From Thermoleophilia bacterium (GTDB taxonomy: Bacteria; Actinomycetota; Thermoleophilia; BMS3ABIN01): a DNA stretch of 64,000 bases. The DNA lies in the NCBI GenBank assembly GCA_014859345.1, contig JACUUL010000003.1, positions 4,460-68,459 on the forward strand, read 5' to 3'. Shown one piece after another: positions 31,329-45,910 of the stretch (the first letter of the stretch is position 1; the number at the start of each line of letters is the position of its first letter). Both the position numbers and the translations under genes were made by a program. A model generated the notes under the pieces. That model saw only the letters and a program-made list of their open reading frames with translations. It had not been told where the DNA came from and did not search any database.

Positions 31329-32726
31329 ATGGAACTCAGCCAATCCTTAAAGACAAGCCAGCAGGTGGCCCTGTCCCCCAGGCTCTATGAGAGCCTGAAG
31401 ATCCTGAGACTGGGCGCGCACGAGCTCGGGGAGCTGGTCAAGCAAGAGCTGAACGAAAACCCGGCCCTGGAGATGCCGGAGCCATCCGAACTCGATATTG
31501 ATCTCGAACTGGACCGCACCGCCGTCATCGAGGCAGCCGGACCCGATCTCTGGCGGGATTTGTCCTCAGCCAGCAGGACTGTGGGGCGTCGCGATCCGTT
31601 GCGGGCCGGCGCGCCTGACGTGGGCGAGCTGGCCACCACCAGAGTCAGCCTCTATGATCATTTGACCCTGCAGCTGAGGCTTCTGCGATTTCCCCGGCAG
31701 AAGCGGCGCGCCGCCCTGGCCGTGATCGGCAGCCTCGATGATGACGGCTACCTGCGAGAGCCGGTAACGGAGATAGCCGCGACCCTTGGAAGGCCGCCGG
31801 CGGAAATCGAGGCGGCGCTCGAACTGGTGCAGGGCTTCGATCCCCCGGGCATCGCCGCGCGCAGCCTGCGGGAATGCCTCGCGCTGCAACTGGCGCGATT
31901 GAACGCTGGCCCCTTGGCCCTTGAAATTGCCAGGGAGCACCTGTCCAGGGTTGCCCGTGATGACCTTGCCGGGATCGCCCGGGATCTGGGAGCGCCGGTC
32001 CCCAGGGTGAAACGGGCAATAAAACTGATTCGCAGCCTTAATCCCCGCCCCGGATCACTCTTCGATTCTGGCACGGCGGCGGCAGTGGCTGTTCCGGATG
32101 TCTATGTCAAACATGAAAGAGGCAGGATCAGCATACTGCCCAACCGCGAGATCCAGCCGCCACTGCACATCAGCCGGCTTTACCGGCAGCTCGCCGAGGA
32201 TGCAGAACAGGCTCCCGGAACAACCGATGAAGAGACCATCAGGTTTATCAGGACCAAAATCCGGGAGGCCTCCCGACTGATTCGTGATATCGACCAGCGG
32301 CGCGCCACTGTCACCCGGGTAGCGCGCGCCATCGCCGCGGCCCAGCCGGAGTTTTTCCAGAAGGGTCCGGAACACCTGCGGCCGCTCGGCCTGGATGACA
32401 TCGCCGGCCGGCTGGACGTCCATGCATCCACCATCAGCCGCGCCATCCTTGACAAGTACATGAGTACCCCTCACGGAATCTTCGAATTCCGTTATTTCTT
32501 CTCGTCGGGATATCAGGCTTGCGGTGAGGGCGGCATCGCCGCCACGGCGGTGCGAAAGAGGCTGCAAAAAATGATCGAAGAAGAGGACAAGCGCCATCCG
32601 TTATCCGACCAGGAGCTGACAGGGCTTTTAAGGAAGGAAGGGGTGCCCATCGCCCGCAGAACCGTCGCCAAGTACCGTGAGGAGATGGGGATAGCCTCGT
32701 CCCGGGTCCGCCGTAAAGAAGCATGA
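31329..32726 (+). CDS. rpoN: RNA polymerase sigma-54 factor
   Basis: N-terminal region I (LKTSQQVALSPRLYESLKILRL...ELNENPALE), HTH, and C-terminal RpoN box ARRTVAKYREEMGI. Confidence 0.9.
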   Translation: MELSQSLKTSQQVALSPRLYESLKILRLGAHELGELVKQELNENPALEMPEPSELDIDLELDRTAVIEAAGPDLWRDLSSASRTVGRRDPLRAGAPDVGELATTRVSLYDHLTLQLRLLRFPRQKRRAALAVIGSLDDDGYLREPVTEIAATLGRPPAEIEAALELVQGFDPPGIAARSLRECLALQLARLNAGPLALEIAREHLSRVARDDLAGIARDLGAPVPRVKRAIKLIRSLNPRPGSLFDSGTAAAVAVPDVYVKHERGRISILPNREIQPPLHISRLYRQLAEDAEQAPGTTDEETIRFIRTKIREASRLIRDIDQRRATVTRVARAIAAAQPEFFQKGPEHLRPLGLDDIAGRLDVHASTISRAILDKYMSTPHGIFEFRYFFSSGYQACGEGGIAATAVRKRLQKMIEEEDKRHPLSDQELTGLLRKEGVPIARRTVAKYREEMGIASSRVRRKEA

Positions 32727-34237
32727 CATCTAATTCAAATACCGTCACCGTGATTCGGGATATCGCCATGGTCGCGTCGGGGATCGCCCTGATCAGCTAT
32801 TTTCATTTCTTTCCGCTCCATCTGGAGTTCATGTCCCACGAGACCTTCCACATCCTTCTGCGCCGACTTTACTATGTTCCGATTTTCTATGCCGCCATAC
32901 GCTTTGGTCTTAAAGGCGGGGTGATCGCTTCCCTGACCGCGACAGCCCTGTTCGCTCCCCATGCGGCCAGAACCCTGGGAGGCTTCCTCGGCCCCATATC
33001 GGTAGACAACCTTTTCGATATTATCCTTTACAATGTGGTGGGTCTGACCACCGGCCTTGTTGTGGACTCGCGCCGCCGCCAGGCCCACAGATATGAAGAG
33101 GTGGTCAATCTGAACCGCGAGATCGAAGACCGGGAAACGGCCATCCGCCACATGCAGGCGTATACCCAGAGCATCCTGAGCAGTGTCAGCAGCGGCGTCA
33201 TATCGTGCGACCGCCGGGGCGTTGTAGTCACAGCCAATCCGGTCGCCCGCAGGCTGCTGGGGCTTGGAGAGGAAGATATCGTGGGCTTCCCCCTTTCCCG
33301 CGTCTTTCCCGGGCACTCGGAATTGCTGCGGGCCGCACGGCTGATCTTAAGCGGAGAGCAGAAGCGCGCCACGCTGGAAACCTGCCTTGCCATCGAGGGC
33401 AGAACCCTCACGGTGGCAGTGCGGATAACTCCTCATCTCAGCCGCGGCCGCACCGTCGGCGCCGTCATCACCCTGGAAGACCTTACCGAAGTCAAGGATC
33501 TCACGGAGCAGCTTCTGCGCGCGGACCGGCTGTCGGGTCTGGGGGAGCTGGTGGCCGGCGTGGCGCACGAGGTGAGAAATCCTTTGGGCGTCATCCGCGC
33601 CAGCGTCCAGATGCTGGACCAGGAGATGGAAACCGGCAGCGGCGCCGCCGAGCTCAACCAGGTCATGCTGCAGGAAATCGACCGCCTCGATTCGGTGGTC
33701 GGCGCCCTGCTTGACTTCGGAAGCCCATCTGAGTCACAGTTTGGGCACGTCGAGCCGGTACGGGTGCTTGACGAGGTGATGCTGCTGACCAGGCATTTCG
33801 CCCAGCAACAGGAAATAGACATCGCCGCCGGTTATCCGGCGGAACTTCCCGGCGTATGGGCCGAAGAGGACAGGCTGAAACAGGTGTTCCTGAATCTGAT
33901 ATCAAACGCGATCCAGGCCATGCCAGGCGGGGGTTCGCTAAAGGTGTCGGCAGCACCCCGAGACGGCTATCTGCGCGTGGAAGTCACGGACACAGGCGGA
34001 GGCATCCCCCCGGAGGAGCAGAAAAGAATCTTTGACCCATTCCACACCACCCGGGCCGAGGGCAGCGGGCTCGGCCTTGCCATCGTGCACCGCATCGTGG
34101 ACGCCCATAACGGTTTCATCACGGTGGACAGCGAGCCGGGCAGGGGGAGCACCTTCACGGTGGGCATACCTCTATCGGGGGCCGCGATAACAGGCACGGC
34201 CATAGACGAGCCGGCCGGGGAAGCTGACGATGACTGA
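32723..34237 (+). CDS. membrane-bound PAS-domain sensor histidine kinase (NtrB/AtoS-like)
   Basis: N-terminal TM region, PAS (ILSSVSSGVISCDRRGVVVTANP), H-box GVAHEVRNPL, N-box LNLISNAIQA, G-boxes DTGGGI and GSGLGLAIV. Its ATG overlaps the rpoN stop (ATGA). Confidence 0.85.
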   Translation: MTSNSNTVTVIRDIAMVASGIALISYFHFFPLHLEFMSHETFHILLRRLYYVPIFYAAIRFGLKGGVIASLTATALFAPHAARTLGGFLGPISVDNLFDIILYNVVGLTTGLVVDSRRRQAHRYEEVVNLNREIEDRETAIRHMQAYTQSILSSVSSGVISCDRRGVVVTANPVARRLLGLGEEDIVGFPLSRVFPGHSELLRAARLILSGEQKRATLETCLAIEGRTLTVAVRITPHLSRGRTVGAVITLEDLTEVKDLTEQLLRADRLSGLGELVAGVAHEVRNPLGVIRASVQMLDQEMETGSGAAELNQVMLQEIDRLDSVVGALLDFGSPSESQFGHVEPVRVLDEVMLLTRHFAQQQEIDIAAGYPAELPGVWAEEDRLKQVFLNLISNAIQAMPGGGSLKVSAAPRDGYLRVEVTDTGGGIPPEEQKRIFDPFHTTRAEGSGLGLAIVHRIVDAHNGFITVDSEPGRGSTFTVGIPLSGAAITGTAIDEPAGEADDD

Positions 34238-35570
34238 TTCCATACTGGTCGTCGACGACGAGAAAAACATGCGTTTCGTGGTGGGGCGCGCCCTCAGGAG
34301 CGCCGGTCACGACGTGAGCGAGGCAGCCTCGGGAGAGGAGGCCCTCCGGGCGTTAGGGAAATCGGCTCCCAGCCTGGTGCTGCTCGATCAGCGGATGCCG
34401 GGAATGGATGGGCTGGCCACCCTCAAGGAGATGAAACGGCGTCAACCGGAGTTGCCGGTGGTGATGCTCACCGCCCACGGCAACATCGAGGACGCTGTCA
34501 AGGCCATGAAGGCCGGGGCATCCGATTACCTCACCAAGCCTTTCGACGTGGAAGAGCTGAAACTGGCCGTTGAGAAGGCGCTCAAGCTCAGCTGCCTCGA
34601 GCGGCAGGTGGATTTTCTGCGCGAAGAGCTCGGCCGGGATTACGATACCTCGGGCGTTATTGGCGAGAGCGCGCAGATGCAGGAAGTCCTGGCCACGGTG
34701 CGCCGGGTTGCCGCTACGGACGCTACCGTGATGATCTATGGCGAGAGCGGCACGGGCAAGGAACTCATCGCCAGGGCCATCCATAACGGCAGCCCGCGGG
34801 CCCGGGGGCCTTTCGTCCAGCTCAGCTGCGCGGCCCTGCCGGAGACCCTTCTGGAGAGCGAGCTTTTCGGTTACGAGAAGGGCGCCTTCACCGGCGCCAC
34901 CGGTTCCAAACCGGGCCGCTTCGAACTCGCCGATGGCGGCAGCCTGTTCCTGGACGAGATCGGAGACATATCTCCGGCGGTGCAGGTCAAGCTTCTGCGC
35001 GTCCTGGAAACCATGACATTCGAGCGCCTGGGATCCAACCAGACCGTCAGCGTCGACGTGCGACTCATCGGCGCCACCAACAGAGACCTGCCTCGGTTGA
35101 TAAGCGAAGGAGGATTCCGCGAGGACCTTTATTACCGCCTGAACGTGATCCCTGTCTGCATGCCGCCTCTGCGGGACCGGCCGGGGGACATCAAGCTGCT
35201 GGCCAAGCACTTCCTGGCCAGGCACGCTCCCGGCAAGGATCTGTCTCCGGAGGCCCTCCGGCATCTGGAGGATTACCGCTGGCCCGGCAACGTGCGCGAG
35301 CTGATCAACACGATCGAACGCGCCGGCATCTTAAGCCCCGGGCCTGTTATCGGCCCCGGTGATTTGCCGGCCGAGGTGCGGGCGGGAACATCGCCGGCCG
35401 CGGGCGGCTTCGAGCTCCCCCCGGAGGGCGTGACCCTGGAGCAGGTGGAGAAAGAGCTCATCGAACAGGCGCTGGCGCGCACCGGCGGCAACCGTACAAA
35501 GGCCGCCGGCCTGCTGGGCATAAGCCGCCATACGTTGCTTTACCGCATCGAGAAATATCATATTGGCTGA
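34230..35570 (+). CDS. sigma-54-dependent response regulator (NtrC-family bacterial enhancer-binding protein)
   Basis: Receiver ([13 protein letters not shown]), AAA+ domain with GESGTGKE Walker [16 protein letters not shown] (GAFTGA loop), and C-terminal Fis-type [23 protein letters not shown]. Overlaps the kinase gene by 8 nt. Confidence 0.9.
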
Positions 35571-38217: not shown

Positions 38218-38233
38218 TGGCACGCCAATTGCT
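38218..38233 (+). promoter_or_regulatory. sigma-54 (-24/-12) promoter
   Basis: TGGCACGCCAATTGCT matches TGGCACG-N4-TTGCW at every conserved position, with GG-N10-GC spacing. It lies about 45 bp upstream of the ATG at 38279. Confidence 0.8.
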
Positions 38234-38278: not shown

Positions 38279-39358
38279 ATGGTAAAACAGAATGGCGGTA
38301 TCATAATCCTGTTTTTCGGAGCTGCAGTCTTGCTGGCAGCAGGCTTGTTCCTGGGCGTCCCCACAGCCGACATCCACCCCGGCGACGGCCATGCAGCCGT
38401 GGCGCTGGGAAGCCCGCTGAAAATCAGCTCATCTCCCTTTGCCAGGATTGGAAAAATCGCCGTCTATGCCGACGGGCAGCTCCTGGACATGGAGTACAAC
38501 CTTGGAACCGGAGACCTCACCCGCGACCTGGAAATCCGTCCGGGTCAGCAGGTGCGCGTGGAAGCCAAGGTGGCTTCACTCATCGGCCTTACCCGGGAGT
38601 TCACCTCCACTTTCACCACCGTGCCGCCATTGAAGATCGAATCGATGCGGGTGGACGGAGTCCCGTACGCTCCCGGAGACAGGATTCCGCCGCAACCGAC
38701 CCTGGCGTTCTTCTTTAGCAAGCCGGTCATCGAGGCCGCGGTTTCGCTGGATGGCAGCGAACCCATCGAGCTGGAGATCGATCCAGACGACGCCACTCTG
38801 GCTACCTTTCACCCGGTCGTCTCTTACAGGCAAGGGGCTACCTATGTGCTGGACATCACCGCCACTGCGGTGGACACGGCCACGCTCGAGCCTCTTCAGG
38901 TCCGCGCCAGCGTGGTGCCGCCACTTTCCCTTTACGGCCGCGTCGAGGAGGGGGATGGCGGCGTCATCATCGAGCTGAACGCAAACACTCCCTTCGCCGA
39001 TCCGGAAGCTGTCATGGCGGCGCTGGAAACCAACCTGCCCGGCGCCGGCATTTCGGTAGAGAGGCAGAGGATAATCATCTCCTGCCCGGGCCTCGACCCT
39101 GGCAGCGAGTATGACATAAAGCTCGCCAGTGCCGACGGCGCCAACGGCAGCTTTCTGGAAGCTCCGCTGGCCATGACTCTGAGCTTTAAGGCACAGCCTG
39201 CCCCGAGTGCCGGCGGTTATGTCTCCACTGGCTTTTATACCGGTTATGTCTATAACGCGGGCGGACCGGGCACGGGAGCCTCCGTTGCCGCCCAGGCAGG
39301 CCCGGAATCGGGCCCGCCTCCGGGCTGGCCCGACTGCTGTCCCTGGCCGCCACAATAA
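38279..39358 (+). CDS. N-terminally anchored extracytoplasmic protein with Ig-like (SbsA/Big_5-like) modules and a Gly/Tyr-rich tail ending in CC
   Basis: TM anchor GGIIILFFGAAVLLAAGLFLG, beta-rich modules, and C-terminus ...GGYVSTGFYTGYVYNAGGPG...PPPGWPDCCPWPPQ. ATG at 38279 chosen because ORF start 38243 would sit on top of the promoter. Confidence 0.6.
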   Translation: MVKQNGGIIILFFGAAVLLAAGLFLGVPTADIHPGDGHAAVALGSPLKISSSPFARIGKIAVYADGQLLDMEYNLGTGDLTRDLEIRPGQQVRVEAKVASLIGLTREFTSTFTTVPPLKIESMRVDGVPYAPGDRIPPQPTLAFFFSKPVIEAAVSLDGSEPIELEIDPDDATLATFHPVVSYRQGATYVLDITATAVDTATLEPLQVRASVVPPLSLYGRVEEGDGGVIIELNANTPFADPEAVMAALETNLPGAGISVERQRIIISCPGLDPGSEYDIKLASADGANGSFLEAPLAMTLSFKAQPAPSAGGYVSTGFYTGYVYNAGGPGTGASVAAQAGPESGPPPGWPDCCPWPPQ

Positions 39359-39363
39359 ACACC

Positions 39364-41796
39364 GTGAACCAGTACCGGAAAAAACATAATTTTTATGCAG
39401 CTCTTCTGTCACTTTCATTGGCCCTGTCCATGCTGGCGGCTGTGGCTCCCGCTGCCTTGCTGGCGGAGAACAGCCAGTCGGCGGCGAGCGCCTACGGAGC
39501 GCCTGCCCAGCCCGCTTCCGGCGGCGGTTCCGGGGAACAGGCAGGCGCCTTCCCCGTCGCCGGCGGCGACCCCGCGCCAGCTCCCGCGGCGCCGATGTTC
39601 ATGGCGGCAGCCGCGACTCCACAGGCAGCGGACACGGTCGCTCCCGTGATAACCGGCCTGACGCCGCCGGACGGGACCGTCACCGGCCCCACCGTTTTCA
39701 TCAGCGCCAGCTACAGCGATCCGGAGCCGTCGAGCGGCATAAACACCGCCACCGCCATGATTCATATCGACGACAGGCATCAGTACGGCTGCACCATCAC
39801 CGGGTCCGGCATCTCTCTCCTGAAAACCGGGTTGTCGGAAGGCCCTCATAAAATTGAGGCATTTATCTGCGACAAAAATTACAACTGCGCCGTCTCCGCC
39901 TGGCACATCACCGTGGACGCCACCGGGCCGGTTATTTCCGGCAGCCAGCCCACCGGCACCATCAACAGCAAGGATACGGTCATTTCCTCCTTTTTTAGCG
40001 ATGAAGATGGCGCCGGAGTCGACCCCGACTCGGCCGAGGTTTTGGTTGACGGAGAGAACATCACGGCTGGCTGCCAGGTCACGGCCGGGGGCATCGCCTG
40101 CCCGGCCACCGGCCTGGGCAACGGGGAGCATCACGTCCGGGTCTCTGTCTCTGACCTCGTGGGCAACCGCTCGTCCGGCAGCTGGAGCTTCAGCGTCAAC
40201 ACCGCCGCCATCGGCGTAACCGGCCAGTATCCGGTTCCCGGCAGCTGGACCAGAAACAGCATGCCGGCTGTCGGAGCCATCTTCCAGCAAGCGGGAACGG
40301 GAATCATAGACGTGTCATCCATTACCCTGTTGATTGACGGAGTTGATGTCAGCACCACCGCGGAGCGCCATGCTGGCGGAGTCAGGTACACCCCTTCTCC
40401 TCAAGAGCTTGCCGAGGGGTGGCATGCGGTCAGCCTGACCGTCGGCGATGATGAGGGATACGTGGGCCAGAGCGAGTGGTCCTTTGCCATCGATACCATC
40501 GCGCCCGTGATCAGGAACGTGGCGCCGACGGGGCTTACCACCAGCCTGCCATCTGTCTCCGCGTCATACTCCGATGATGGCAGCGGCATGGACCTGGCCA
40601 GCATCGACCTCATCATCGATGGCTTGAATGTGACCGGCTCAGCGACTGTCACTGCGGACAGCATCACCTACGTACCGCACGAAAGCTTTGCTTCAGGGCC
40701 GCACAACGCTCAGCTGTCAGTCCGGGACCTGGCCGGCAATCTGCAGGTTTCTGCCTGGAGCTTCAGCGTTCCGGCGCAGGGGCCGGTCTTCCAGCCTCCT
40801 TTACGGCAAACGAACCCCGGCCCATCTGTAACTGCCGTTACTGAATACTGGCTGAGCTACATCAATTTGCCGTTTTCGAGCGGAGGAAGTTGGGTCCTCT
40901 CCGGCTTTCATACTTTCCCGGCCACGTACTTTCTGCCCTGGTACGGCGCGGACCCGGCCGCGGGTGTGGACGGGCAGGAGATCGTCATCACGAACCGGGG
41001 GGCGGGGGAAGCATCCGTTTACGTGCTGGTGAGCGGCGAGAACGTATGGGAAGAAAAACTGGCCGAGGGCGGGACATCCGTGTGCCGGCTACCCGGCATC
41101 TCAGGCGGCCCGGTCAAGATCATCAGCCCCACGGGGAACCAGCTGGAAGTGGTAAGCAGGACGGCCGCCCGCGGCGGCGTCAGCGAAAGTCCGGCGGTGG
41201 CGCAGGAGGACCTGGAGCCTGTTCTGCTGATGCCCTGGTTTGAATCGCTGCCGGCGAGCACCGGCAGATCGACTCTCATAGTTGCCAATGCGGGCAGCGA
41301 AGAAGCATTGGTCGAGTTATATGTCGGCGACCCGGCGCTTGCCGAATCTCTGCGGGGCAGCCTTACTATCGGACCCGAAGCGGCAGTCGAGACGGAACTG
41401 CCCGGCGTCAGGAGTGGTCCGGTCAGGATAGAAAGCACCAACGGCCAGCCTCTGACAGCGGTTTACCGGGAAACCGCTCCGGATTCCTACTACGAAGCTC
41501 TCGCCACCGGTTTCTCCCGGCTTAATGACAGCTACCGCCTCGAGCCGGGCTCCGGAGAGCCGGCCAGGGGAAGAAAGCTGGTGCTGGGCAACGGCAATGA
41601 CGTGGACAAGCGAGCCTTTGTCAGCATCGGCGGTGAGCCGCTTGATGATCCGGAAAACCCCGGTGAGGAATTCATCGTCGTGCCCCGCCACGGCGTCCGG
41701 ATTCTGGAAATCCCCGGAGATTTCTCCCGGCCTGTGCTGATCAAATGCGAGGATTGCAAGCTCGGCGAAGGCCTGTCTCCGGGATTCAGGCGCTAA
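39364..41796 (+). CDS. secreted 810-aa protein: about four Ig-like modules followed by three beta-sandwich repeats related to those of the amidase/SpoIID protein
   Basis: Signal peptide LLSLSLALSMLAAVAPAALLA. Repeated modules of the form D..AP.I....P.G......ISASYSD..SG.D..S....IDG..V........I.Y.P...L..G.H.....V.D.AGN.....WSFSV. C-terminal units FLPWYG...ITNRG...GGPVKI and LMPWFE...VANAG...SGPVRI. GTG start. Confidence 0.65.
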   Translation: MNQYRKKHNFYAALLSLSLALSMLAAVAPAALLAENSQSAASAYGAPAQPASGGGSGEQAGAFPVAGGDPAPAPAAPMFMAAAATPQAADTVAPVITGLTPPDGTVTGPTVFISASYSDPEPSSGINTATAMIHIDDRHQYGCTITGSGISLLKTGLSEGPHKIEAFICDKNYNCAVSAWHITVDATGPVISGSQPTGTINSKDTVISSFFSDEDGAGVDPDSAEVLVDGENITAGCQVTAGGIACPATGLGNGEHHVRVSVSDLVGNRSSGSWSFSVNTAAIGVTGQYPVPGSWTRNSMPAVGAIFQQAGTGIIDVSSITLLIDGVDVSTTAERHAGGVRYTPSPQELAEGWHAVSLTVGDDEGYVGQSEWSFAIDTIAPVIRNVAPTGLTTSLPSVSASYSDDGSGMDLASIDLIIDGLNVTGSATVTADSITYVPHESFASGPHNAQLSVRDLAGNLQVSAWSFSVPAQGPVFQPPLRQTNPGPSVTAVTEYWLSYINLPFSSGGSWVLSGFHTFPATYFLPWYGADPAAGVDGQEIVITNRGAGEASVYVLVSGENVWEEKLAEGGTSVCRLPGISGGPVKIISPTGNQLEVVSRTAARGGVSESPAVAQEDLEPVLLMPWFESLPASTGRSTLIVANAGSEEALVELYVGDPALAESLRGSLTIGPEAAVETELPGVRSGPVRIESTNGQPLTAVYRETAPDSYYEALATGFSRLNDSYRLEPGSGEPARGRKLVLGNGNDVDKRAFVSIGGEPLDDPENPGEEFIVVPRHGVRILEIPGDFSRPVLIKCEDCKLGEGLSPGFRR

Positions 41797-41857
41797 ATTT
41801 ACATGCTGCCGGCTCATGCCGCAAGGAACTTAAATCTGAACAGGAGGATGTGAGGGA

Positions 41858-43162
41858 ATGAAAGGAAACAGGCTTTTACTCAAGACGATTTTGCTGATCG
41901 CGGCGCTGGGAATCGCAGCTGCGTCTTTCACCGCCGCAGCCGGCGCCACCGACGATGTGACCCCACCGGTGGTCACCAGCGTCGTGCCTGCCGATGGCAG
42001 CACCATTTACACCAACGGTGATTCTACCATCTATTACCAGCTTGGCAATCCAACCCCCATGACCATCAGGGCCGAGTACAGTGACGAGCCCGGCGGCAGC
42101 GGCGTCGACACGGATAGCGTCATGGTCCATCTGGATATAGCCAACATGCTTTACGACTGTCCCGTCTGGACGGACGCCGAGATCGCCTGCAACGCGACCG
42201 CGGCCGACCTGGCTCCGGGGCTGCACCCGCTCGATATTTATGTTTTTGACCTGGCCGGCAACCCAACCGTGCATCGCACCTGGTTCACGGTTGCCGTCGA
42301 TGACGAGACGCCCTCTTATGCCAACTTGTCGCCGGCGGACGGCAGCATCATCTACACGTCCGAGCTGAACAGCGCCGGCAACAACGATATGGACGCCCTG
42401 CGCGTAGAATACGATGTCATCGATCCGGAGCCGTCCAGCGGCGTAAACCCGATGAGCCATGTCAATGACAGCTTTCCGCCCGGCGTGTCCGGCGCCATGA
42501 TCTCGAACACGTCCTGTGTGAAAAACCCCGACGCCGATAATCCGGTTCACTATTCGTGCCAGTTAAACAGGGCCAGGTTGCTTCAGCTGGGCGAAAACCA
42601 GCTCTCGGTCCTGCTAAAGGACAGGGTGGGCAACAACAACCACGAGGATCCCTCGAGCCTGAACACCTACACTGTGATTGACGACGTCGAGCCGGTTGTC
42701 AGCGACATCGCCGCGGACGAGACCGCCATCAGCGCCTCCTTCAGCGACCCGCTGCCTGACGGAGCCCTCTCCACCCTGCTGGCCAGCGGCATCGATACGG
42801 ATACCGCGAAGATTCTTGTCGACGACGCCATGATCACGGAAGGCTGCACGGCCACGGAGACGGGGATCAGCTGTCCCACGCCCACGGAGCTGCCTGACGG
42901 TACGTACGACATCGAGGTGATGGTTTCCGATAACGACGGAAACCAGGGCCTGGGCGCCGGCACGCTGAGCATCGGAGCGCCTTCCTGCACTCCGGGAAGC
43001 CCGGCCTGGGCCTGCGTCACTGGAACGCCTACTGGGCCTCACTGGCCGATTACGAGGCGAGGCTGCTTTCGGTGCCGTTCAGGGTCGTCAACTTCGGTGC
43101 TACCGCCGCCGCCGGTGTACAGTTCACTTCGAGCGCGCCCGGCGCCGGTGTCGAGCTGGTGA
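41858..43162 (+). CDS. secreted Ig-repeat protein, apparently frameshifted near 42994
   Basis: Signal peptide LLKTILLIAALGIAAASFTAAAGA, then about four modules of the same type as the 810-aa protein, each with a Cys pair. The last ~55 codons (PSCTPGSPAWACVTGTPTGPHWPITRRGCFRCRS...) look like out-of-frame translation. Confidence 0.6.
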   Translation: MKGNRLLLKTILLIAALGIAAASFTAAAGATDDVTPPVVTSVVPADGSTIYTNGDSTIYYQLGNPTPMTIRAEYSDEPGGSGVDTDSVMVHLDIANMLYDCPVWTDAEIACNATAADLAPGLHPLDIYVFDLAGNPTVHRTWFTVAVDDETPSYANLSPADGSIIYTSELNSAGNNDMDALRVEYDVIDPEPSSGVNPMSHVNDSFPPGVSGAMISNTSCVKNPDADNPVHYSCQLNRARLLQLGENQLSVLLKDRVGNNNHEDPSSLNTYTVIDDVEPVVSDIAADETAISASFSDPLPDGALSTLLASGIDTDTAKILVDDAMITEGCTATETGISCPTPTELPDGTYDIEVMVSDNDGNQGLGAGTLSIGAPSCTPGSPAWACVTGTPTGPHWPITRRGCFRCRSGSSTSVLPPPPVYSSLRARPAPVSSW

Positions 43163-43314
43163 CGCCGGTGCCGCATCCCGTGGGTGACATCCCGGCGGGA
43201 GATACGGCTGATGCCACCCTGGTATTCCAGGTGCCCCAGGGCACGGCCAGCTTTCGCACCGCCAACACCGCCAGCGCCGAGGATACTTGCGGCAATTTGT
43301 ATCAGTATCCGTAA
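43072..43314 (+). CDS. probable displaced C-terminal domain of the preceding gene, in a different frame (open from 42934)
   Basis: This frame reads ...KPGLGLRHWNAYWASLADYEARLLSVPFRVVNFGATAAAGVQFTSSAPGAGVELVTPVPHPVGDIPAGDTADATLVFQVPQGTASF..., a plausible beta-sandwich domain, and overlaps the implausible tail of 41858..43162. Confidence 0.5.
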   Translation: MPFRVVNFGATAAAGVQFTSSAPGAGVELVTPVPHPVGDIPAGDTADATLVFQVPQGTASFRTANTASAEDTCGNLYQYP

Positions 43315-43346
43315 ACAGGAGCTGACGAGACACAGGAGGAACAAGA

Positions 43347-43811
43347 ATGATGAGTAAACGCAATAGCATGGCAGCCGGAGCCGGTGTCGCCGCCCTGGGG
43401 GCGCTGGTCGCCGCCACCCCCAGATATCTCTTTCCGGTATGCGAATATTTCGGCGTGCGGATGGAAATGCAGGGCAGGACAGATCACATGCACTGTTTTT
43501 ACACCGCCAGAGCCTCGCTGATGATTGGATTGATCATCGGCCTCATAGGCATAGCCCTCTTCCTCTCCCGGAGGCCGGAGACCCGGCGCCTGCTCTCACT
43601 GGTCCTGGCAGGCTCTGCCGGCGCGGTCATTCTGGTCCCAACAGCCCTGTTTACCGTATGTCAAAACCCCGACATGCATTGTAACCACGGCACCGTGCCT
43701 CTGCTCATCGTTCTCGGGATCACCACTTTGCTCTTCTCGGGATGGTTGGGACTGACCTCCCGCGCGCCCGAATCCATGGAGGAGCCCTCCCTGGCCGAAG
43801 CACTGCGCTAG
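43347..43811 (+). CDS. DUF4418-like four-TM membrane protein with conserved cysteines
   Basis: Four hydrophobic segments and two Cys-containing loops (FPVCEYFG..M.M....HMHCFYTA and FTVCQNPDMHCNHG), matching my recollection of DUF4418 proteins. Confidence 0.5.
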   Translation: MMSKRNSMAAGAGVAALGALVAATPRYLFPVCEYFGVRMEMQGRTDHMHCFYTARASLMIGLIIGLIGIALFLSRRPETRRLLSLVLAGSAGAVILVPTALFTVCQNPDMHCNHGTVPLLIVLGITTLLFSGWLGLTSRAPESMEEPSLAEALR

Positions 43812-43845
43812 CCAGTAACCAAGATCCCATCATCCGGAGCCAGCA

Positions 43846-43884
43846 GGCCCCGGCCCCGCGCGGGCCGGGGCCTCCTTTTTTTTT
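43846..43884 (+). terminator. rho-independent terminator
   Basis: Perfect 11-bp GC stem GGCCCCGGCCC / GGGCCGGGGCC with a 5-nt loop, followed by TCC and a run of nine T, 35 nt after the stop of the DUF4418-like gene. Confidence 0.85.
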
Positions 43885-44094
43885 GTGATTTTTACGCCAC
43901 CGGACTCAGCGATCCGCTCTTTTCCGTGACTTCCGTAACTTTTTTCCCGAATATTCGTTTGTTAAGGCAGGCTTCACGCTCTGCCGATAGAGCTAACTAA
44001 AGATGGGAGGGAACGGATTAATTCCTCCCCGATCAACCTTTAGGGCGAGGTTTAACGGTCTTGACCGGGCGATGAAAACTACAAGATCAACAGA

Positions 44095-44544
44095 GTGGCG
44101 AAACCAACCAACAAAAGCGATGCCGGAGTGGACTACTTCATACAGCGGGTCGTCTTCTCCGAAGGCCAGGTACTGGATCTGGTCTGCTTCAAGAATGGCG
44201 TATCTACACAGAGCATCATCGAGGAAATCGTGACCGAGCTGCAGAAAAAAAAGACAGAACTGGGAACCTGCCCTCTCTGCAAATCCAGGCTGATCTATCC
44301 GATGGAGCGTTACCAGCTAAACGACCTGGAGTGGAAGGTGCTGATGCTGTGCCCTAACTGCCTGTGCAAGCGGGAGATAGTCGTCGACCGCGAAACGGTG
44401 CGGGATCTGCTCAGGACGGCGCGGATGGGCCGCGAGTCCCTGATGAACGAGCTCGACAAAATGCAGAGGAAGAACATGGAAGATGAATCGGAGAAATTCA
44501 TCTCGGCTTTGCACAAGGACCATATCCTGCCGATAGATTTTTAG
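44095..44544 (+). CDS. hypothetical zinc-ribbon protein
   Basis: Two CxxC pairs (CPLCKS...CPNCLC) followed by a charged helical tail. GTG start. No family recognised. Confidence 0.4.
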   Translation: MAKPTNKSDAGVDYFIQRVVFSEGQVLDLVCFKNGVSTQSIIEEIVTELQKKKTELGTCPLCKSRLIYPMERYQLNDLEWKVLMLCPNCLCKREIVVDRETVRDLLRTARMGRESLMNELDKMQRKNMEDESEKFISALHKDHILPIDF

Positions 44545-44683
44545 GGCTTCCCGTTCGGGAAATCAGAAACCCGGATGCACCATGCTCAGTTCCCCGCGGC
44601 TATCCCGGCACAGGCGTCCAGATAAATCAACAAGGAAGGGATACGGTAAGCCCGAGTTTCAGGTTTTTCGGGAAAGGGCGTTT

Positions 44684-45910
44684 CTACCGGGAGTTTTTGG
44701 CTATCTCCTTGAGGAACTGCTCGTTGGCTTTTGTGTCCCGCAGCTTGGAGATAAGCAGCTCCAGAGCCGCGGCCGGATCAAGCGCGTGCAGCACGTTCCG
44801 CACCTTCCAGACCTGGATGGCCTCCTGCTCGTCCATCAGCAACTCTTCCTTCCTGGTGCCGGACCGCTCTATGTCGATAGCCGGGAAGACCCGCTTGTCC
44901 GCCAGCTTGCGGTCCAGATGCAGCTCCATGTTGCCTGTGCCCTTGAATTCCTCGAAGATGACCTCATCCATGCGGCTGCCGGTGTCGACCAGCGCCGTGG
45001 CCAGGATGGTCAGAGAGCCGCCTTCCTCCACGTTCCGGGCCGCGCCAAAGAACTTCTTGGGCGGGAACAGGGCTGTTGAATCGACGCCGCCGGAGAGAAT
45101 GCGGCCGCTGGCCGGAGCCGTCAGATTGTAGGCGCGCGCCAGCCTGGTGATGCTGTCCAGCAGCACCACCACGTCTCGCCCCGACTCTACCAGGCGCTTG
45201 ACGCGATCCAGTACCAGCTCGGCCACCTGAACGTGATTGTCCGAGGGTTGGTCGAAGGTAGAGCTGACCACCTCGCCGTCCACCGAGCGCTGCCAGTCCG
45301 TAACCTCCTCCGGACGTTCATCGACCAGAAGCACCAGCAGGTACATATCGGGGTTGTTGATCGTGATGGCGTTGGCCAGCTGTTTGAGGATGGTCGTCTT
45401 GCCGGCTTTCGGGGGCGAGACGATCAGCCCCCGCTGGCCCTTGCCGATCGGCGCGACCAGGTCGATTACCCGTGTGGAGATCTCGGTGGGCTTGGTTTCC
45501 AGCCTCAAACGTTCCACCGGGAACAGCGGCGTGAGCCTGTCGAAAAAGGGCCGGCCCCGCGCTTCCTCGGGATCCATGCCGTTGACAGCTTCTATCTTCA
45601 GCAGCGCGTTGTATTTCTCGCTGTCCTTGGGCTCCCGGACCTGCCCGGTCACCTCATCGCCGCGCCTCAGGCTGAAACGGCGTATTTGGGAGAGCGAGAC
45701 ATAAATGTCATTGTCGCTCTGGGTATATCCCCGGGTGCGCAGGAAGCCGAATCCATCGGGCAGGAGGTCGAGCGTGCCTGTCCTGACCTTGACATCCTCC
45801 GCGCTCTTGTCCTTCTCTTCCTTGGCCGGTTTCCGGCGCGTGGGCGTGCGAGCGGCACGCTCGTCGCCGGTTGTTTTCTTTTCCTGTTCCTGATTTTCTG
45901 CTACTTCCAT
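44684..45910 (-). CDS. rho: transcription termination factor Rho
   Basis: Lys/Arg-rich N-terminal insertion, RNA-binding domain GFGFLR, Walker A PPKAGKT, and [25 protein letters not shown]. Confidence 0.92.

Follow-up and report, generated by a model that had tools for sequence, protein, structure and literature searches.

Two open reading frames overlap at positions 41858 to 43314 of the DNA that we analysed, a 64,000-nucleotide stretch of the Thermoleophilia MAG Kmv30 (hereafter the window). The locus raises the question of whether these frames encode two proteins, a single protein reached through a ribosomal or genetic switch, or the halves of a gene that has lost a base and, in the last case, whether the base is missing from the organism or from its assembled sequence. 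A sequence-only reading had proposed that a frameshift separates the third protein of an operon from a well-formed C-terminal domain, leaving open whether a homopolymer error, a real mutation or a slippage or phase-variation switch was the cause.

The two reading frames and the orthologous gene

The upstream frame (frame A) runs through ...GTLSIGAPSCTPG and thereafter turns into Pro/Arg/Ser/Cys-rich text; the part of it that reads sensibly extends up to ...GTLSIGAPSCTP, whose last Pro codon lies at 42992-42994. The second frame (frame B), one base behind frame A, is open from 42934, passes through ...SGKPGLGLRHWNAYWASLADYEARLLSV... and ends in ...CGNLYQYP, with its stop codon at 43312-43314. 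From the AAG at 42997 it reads KPGLGLRHWNAYWASLADYEARLLSV.... The features of the locus are listed below.

41843-41847 (+): ribosome binding site GGAGG, 10 nt upstream of the ATG at 41858, seen in the sequence
41858-43162 (+): frame A open reading frame, from ATG 41858 to TGA 43160-43162, 434 aa
41858-42994 (+): in-frame part, 379 codons ending ...GAPSCTP, delimited by Pfam matches, orthologue identity and codon log-odds
within 41858-42994 (+): predicted Sec signal peptide (from the N-terminal sequence only), then Ig-like Big_13 repeats
42986-42988 (+): frame A Cys codon just upstream of the shift, a putative disulfide partner (Cys co-occurrence)
42995-42996 (+): frameshift point, the GG left of a Gly codon (orthologue codon and protein alignments)
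42995-43162 (+): out-of-frame tail, 55 junk codons and TGA (homologue coverage, codon log-odds)
42997-43314 (+): stranded C-terminal beta-sandwich domain in the -1 frame, 105 codons and TAA (paralogues, profile, AlphaFold2, orthologues)

Under a codon-usage model trained on the long ORFs of the same genome, frame A scored +0.60 bits per codon before the junction and -0.56 after it, and frame B scored -0.29 before and +0.54 after. The coding frames swap exactly at the junction, far beyond chance. The proposal that frame A is sensible to about 42994 and degenerate from there on thus agrees with the reading frames, the codon log-odds and the end of the homologue matches, and a second frame open over 42934-43314 is confirmed by reading the frames. 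The GGG run also lies where it had been placed, at 42994-42996. One extra base in or adjoining this run joins the frames into a product of 379 + 1 + 105 = 485 aa, as in the orthologues, so that both the arithmetic and the orthologue lengths uphold the predicted protein of about 485 aa.

Two stretches of the frame A protein matched Big_13 (PF19077), at 43.7 bits against a cut-off of 27 bits, and its database homologues were already annotated with PF19077. No second copy of the frameshifted gene was found in the Kmv30 MAG.

Ten loci, spread over nine related genomes from this family, encode products that are 55 to 64% identical to the N-terminal 379 residues (over residues 2 to 379). We fetched and examined nine of these ten loci, which belong to related genera, and in all nine the open frame ran on past the junction; the orthologues do not stop near 43162, and a continuous frame in the relatives, on which the proposed split depended, was there. 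At six loci (L010, L011, L013, L015, L017 and L018) the C-terminal domain followed in the same frame and a stop codon was reached, giving products of about 485 to 490 aa, longer where the gene was fused upstream. The contigs carrying L014 and L016 ended part-way into the C-terminal domain, still in one frame, and at L012 a single frame continued for 99 residues beyond the junction, in sequence other than the C-terminal domain, before the contig ended.

A search of a 5.8-billion-protein collection returned 29 full-length homologues of 477 to 499 aa at 53 to 65% identity and no relative above 65%. Since the matches of these homologues end after ~88% of the 434-aa query, what remains of the frame A product is a junk tail without relatives. 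The JGI metagenome contigs, searched with a variable-gap DNA pattern, held no allele that was near-identical across the junction.

The orthologues carry the junction peptide C-T/V-P-G/A-K-P, encoded by TGC ACN CCN GGN AAR CCN, and the window has TGC ACT CCG GG- AAG CCC at this place. Because the orthologues, and the 29 database homologues with them, read through as C-T-P-G-K-P, the window is short of one base of the Gly codon. From these codons, the event would be a change from G4 to G3, a change from A3 to A2 or the loss of a C or T, depending on which third base was lost. Each frame holds one half of what was a single ancestral gene, coding for a protein of about 485 aa.

One related genome carries two tandem orthologue copies, at G008:C7:3936-5030 and G008:C7:7805-8896 (L015), and one of these lies within a 1094-codon open frame with more Ig repeats upstream.

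The stranded C-terminal domain

A six-frame search of the same 2.08-Mb genome with the frame B peptide found about 28 further copies at 32 to 48% identity (E down to 2e-24). Nearly all of these formed the last ~100 residues of open frames of 400 to 1078 aa, and the linker before them was alike, with a Cys, a few residues and then (K/R/Q)P-x-L-x-L. Against a profile of the paralogues built without the window copy, the frame B peptide scored 113 bits (E 3e-37). The paralogues score 110 to 150 bits on the same domain profile, and the window copy therefore shows no detectable decay.

AlphaFold2, given a 21-sequence alignment, returned an all-beta sandwich of 7 to 8 strands with one short helix (pLDDT 97.3, pTM 0.86). 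Foldseek matched the model to the Ig-like beta-sandwiches of TRAP-beta and gamma-adaptin ear (GAE) domains with probability 1.00 and TM 0.60 to 0.66. The suspicion that the downstream frame encodes a genuine beta-sandwich domain was thus borne out by the paralogues, the AlphaFold model and the fold matches.

The Pfam matches of the stranded domain all fell below the gathering thresholds, with NPCBM_assoc at 17.9 bits against 24.4, DUF11 at 13.6 against 24.6, and CARDB and TRAP_beta also sub-threshold; weak matches of this kind occurred in just 3 to 5 of 21 paralogues. When 21 copies of the domain were compared with NCBIfam, no match of note to T9SS Por_Secre_tail, PEP-CTERM or similar sorting-domain models emerged, the nearest being PACE-CTERM-PROT in 1 of the 21 (E 0.079), and a PDB sequence search with the domain profile gave marginal matches only (E at least 0.04). 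The domain is therefore like the CARDB, DUF11, NPCBM_assoc (NEW3) and TRAP-beta sandwiches in its fold and its weak Pfam matches, but it differs from them in scoring below the gathering thresholds, in being terminal in about 90% of cases, in being confined to one actinobacterial family among the genomes sampled, and in having motifs of its own (Y-W-A-S-x-A-D-Y, R-x-L-S-V-D and a ...Y-P end).

Among 1.84 billion proteins, the domain profile matched 1180 cluster representatives at an E value of at most 0.001, 672 of them at no more than 1e-10. We counted domain positions and Cys residues in the best 150 of the 1180 representatives, which gave 139 full-length domain hits. In 124 of the 139 the domain ended within 12 residues of the protein C terminus, and about 10% of the copies were N-terminal or internal. 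Across a sample of 201 Actinomycetota genomes, all three genomes of the BMS3ABIN01 family carried the domain, with at least 20 copies per genome of ~2 Mb, and the other 198 lacked it. The stranded domain thus belongs to an undescribed, expanded and usually terminal family that is restricted to BMS3ABIN01 among the genomes sampled.

The same representatives pointed to a pair of Cys residues, one within 14 aa upstream of the domain and the other in its last 16 aa. Among 135 proteins, 80 had both, 2 had only the upstream Cys, 28 had only the C-terminal Cys and 25 had neither; the Fisher p value of 2e-10 for this co-occurrence is indicative only, as related sequences are not independent. This pattern suggests a putative disulfide from the linker to the last strand (...EDTCGNLYQYP). 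At our locus frame A supplies the upstream Cys and frame B the C-terminal one, so the presumed disulfide would bridge the frameshift, and a Cys pair spanning the break would be a further sign of one former polypeptide.

The domain probably mediates attachment or sorting of secreted proteins, since it is the terminal module in ~90% of family members. By analogy, it resembles the T9SS CTD of Bacteroidota and the SLH domain in being a beta-sandwich of ~100 aa at the C terminus of at least 20 otherwise unrelated secreted proteins per genome. It differs from both in phylum, in having no NCBIfam match and in being non-terminal in ~10% of cases, and the likeness is one of analogy only. The host is an uncultured mud-volcano actinobacterium. 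This undescribed domain family, whose usual place is the far end of secreted proteins with Ig repeats, is a more useful by-product of the analysis than the frameshift. An anchoring or secretion tag of this kind would be a previously undescribed one in deep-branching Actinomycetota.

Elsewhere in the genome, at C35:37645-40657 and C102:28659-30836, 3 to 4 tandem domain-coding copies follow the genes for a 998-aa and a 1039-aa protein. One pair of these copies is 98.4% identical and the others 68 to 84%; the extra copies lie in short open frames (133 to 248 aa), one of which has an internal TAG. The copies on both contigs lacked the adenine bias of a DGR target and had an ordinary, transition-rich substitution spectrum. 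The only RVT_1 gene of the MAG (C21:1706-2371, in a 463-aa frame, 132 bits) lies on neither contig. We rejected a DGR or cassette origin for want of adenine bias and of an adjacent reverse transcriptase. With an ordinary spectrum and no reverse transcriptase nearby, the tandem copies look like decaying duplicates, though they may have a cassette role.

Cause of the missing base

We consider it likely that a genuine, recent one-base deletion truncates this secreted Ig-repeat protein. The third gene of the surface-protein operon of Kmv30 would have lost one nucleotide of the Gly codon in the linker C-T-P-G-K-P, which joins the Big_13 repeat region to the conserved C-terminal beta-sandwich domain of ~105 aa. 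Translation would then leave the frame after Pro-379, add 55 unrelated residues and end at the stop codon at 43160-43162, and the C-terminal domain would no longer be made. This would leave either a newly arisen pseudogene or a truncated variant borne by the sample's dominant genotype, and the truncated protein would presumably be non-functional or mislocalised. The deletion appears recent because the stranded domain is fully open, with ordinary codon usage and all the motifs of its family still in place. An intact downstream domain would equally be expected from a sequence error.

That alternative, in which the organism has an unbroken gene (~485 aa) and one base dropped out of the consensus in a short G or A run, has to be judged against the data behind the MAG. 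Run SRR11917416 is an Illumina HiSeq2500 2x150 metagenome of Bulganak mud-volcano fluid, assembled with metaSPAdes 3.13 (PMC7565565). Kmv30 comprises 122 contigs and 2,077,786 bp at 59% GC and 37.18x coverage (PMC7565565, Table S2), and it was classed as Thermoleophilia, order and family BMS3ABIN01 (PMC7565565). Its marker-gene completeness is 100% and its contamination 0.2%, figures that speak against widespread broken genes. The Logan contig SRR11917416_73088 is 100% identical to the window over 38858-44995 (6138 bp), and the 434-aa product that it encodes is the same. The assembler behind Logan is not metaSPAdes, and Illumina sequencing has a very low indel error at 3-base runs. With a second assembly of the same run giving an identical sequence, a homopolymer error is improbable, and the agreement of two assemblers on a low-indel platform at adequate depth makes a consensus error in general unlikely. 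We infer that the reads are unanimous for the present length. Both assemblies rest on the same reads, which may leave room for a read-level artefact or for a minority intact allele. An artefact would account for a stranded domain without any decay and for a missing base that adjoins the short homopolymers GGG and AA, rare indels are possible in a MAG consensus, and a handful of other sharp frame switches turned up elsewhere in the genome in a scan based on composition alone. Against this stand HiSeq2500 data at 37x and the 6.1 kb of identity between the metaSPAdes and Logan sequences, and on balance we think an artefact unlikely. Of the causes left open by the sequence-only reading, real mutation is thus the most likely on the strength of Illumina data at 37x and agreeing assemblers, the homopolymer error is less likely, and the slippage or phase-variation switch found no support.

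The genome-wide codon-usage scan recovered the present locus among 49 noisy candidates, about 8 of which were comparably sharp. At these sharp sites, examples of which lie on the minus strand near ~5600 and ~4100 of the window and on contigs C12, C36, C71 and C102, a strongly coding frame runs into a long non-coding tail and a second frame of the same strand turns coding. Being called by codon usage alone, they may mark more frameshifts or just the normal borders of genes.

Three explanations remain, and we regard them, even together, as improbable. Programmed -1 ribosomal frameshifting at CCG GGA AGC would yield the full-length protein through T-P-G-K-P, and a -1 slip after GGA does give the exact orthologous junction G-K-P; reasoning from the sequence, the P-site tRNA-Gly could re-pair on GGG. 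As at the dnaX and IS3-family -1 frameshift sites, the frames overlap and a -1 shift makes a sensible fusion, but our locus has neither the slippery heptamer nor the stimulatory structure of such sites, and its relatives do not share the shift. There is no X XXY YYZ heptamer, T CCG GGA AGC allows no tandem re-pairing, and the A-site Ser tRNA would be unable to re-pair on AAG. No stable stimulatory RNA structure, expected 5 to 9 nt beyond the slip, was found in the 126 nt downstream: their minimum free energy was -46.6 kcal/mol, and shuffled sequences averaged -51.0 (z = +1.02), 171 of 200 shuffles folding as well. Neither a frameshift nor a conserved slip sequence occurs here in any orthologue, and such conservation is the hallmark of programmed sites. 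We therefore rejected programmed frameshifting, the slip sequence, the RNA structure and the conservation all being against it, and we give it very little credence. Phase variation, in which a simple repeat would gain and lose bases reversibly and so toggle the surface protein or its anchoring domain, would suit a secreted surface protein, the usual target of such switches, and the domain family does show duplication and decay at its tandem arrays on C35 and C102. Known contingency loci, however, have tracts of about 7 or more bases, and the tract here is just G3/A2: at the switch point we found only GGG and then AA, with no long homopolymer and no tandem repeat, and the orthologues have no repeat tract here either. 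We judge a switch of this kind very unlikely. The 80-aa ORF from the GTG at 43072 might instead be a gene expressed alone, and the ORF at 43072-43314 does have an AGG-rich stretch 9 to 17 nt upstream. A start at this GTG, however, drops the first beta-strand and the helix (residues 1 to 25 of the 105 in the model), the orthologues are fused, and the domain ends a larger protein in 124 of 139 cases, its short members being indistinguishable from fragments. We rejected the independent small ORF because it would cut the start off the modelled domain, and of all the readings considered here we hold it to be the most improbable.

A genuine deletion, the reading we prefer, makes the frameshift itself ordinary. 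As in ordinary frameshifted pseudogenes, a single-base indel splits a gene that is continuous in orthologues, and the downstream part is recognisable in the other frame. Nothing essential differs, save that here the break falls exactly at a domain linker and strands a complete, well-formed domain. For annotation this is a routine matter: the gene calls for a frameshift flag, and its 434-aa product should be kept from spreading as a member of a protein family.

Operon setting and gene order

The operon encodes, in order, a 371-aa anchored protein, an 810-aa Ig-repeat protein, the frameshifted gene and a DUF4418 membrane protein. The following elements lie around the frameshifted gene.

31329-35570: genes for sigma-54 (rpoN), a PAS histidine kinase and an NtrC-type activator, upstream of the operon
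38218-38233: TGGCAC-N5-TTGCT motif just before the first operon gene
43347-43811 (+): gene for the DUF4418 membrane protein, last of the operon, with its own AGGAGG ribosome binding site (Pfam E 1.7e-26)
43845-43883: strong intrinsic terminator at the operon end

The rpoN, kinase and activator genes and the motif are unusual for a genome classed in Actinomycetota.

Should the stranded domain prove to be an anchoring or sorting tag, this putatively sigma-54-driven surface operon would hold a natural "tag-less" allele at the locus. The fuller proposal, that the domain is a BMS3ABIN01-specific sorting or attachment module and that the indel would unhook one sigma-54-controlled surface protein from the cell, is one we hold to be doubtful.

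The gene order at this end of the operon differs among the relatives. In the window (41858-43811) the 810-aa gene is followed by the Ig-repeat gene and then by the DUF4418 gene, and at L010, L012, L013, L014 and L018 the order is 810-aa gene, DUF4418 gene, Ig-repeat gene. This difference from five related genomes points to a local transposition within the lineage of Kmv30.
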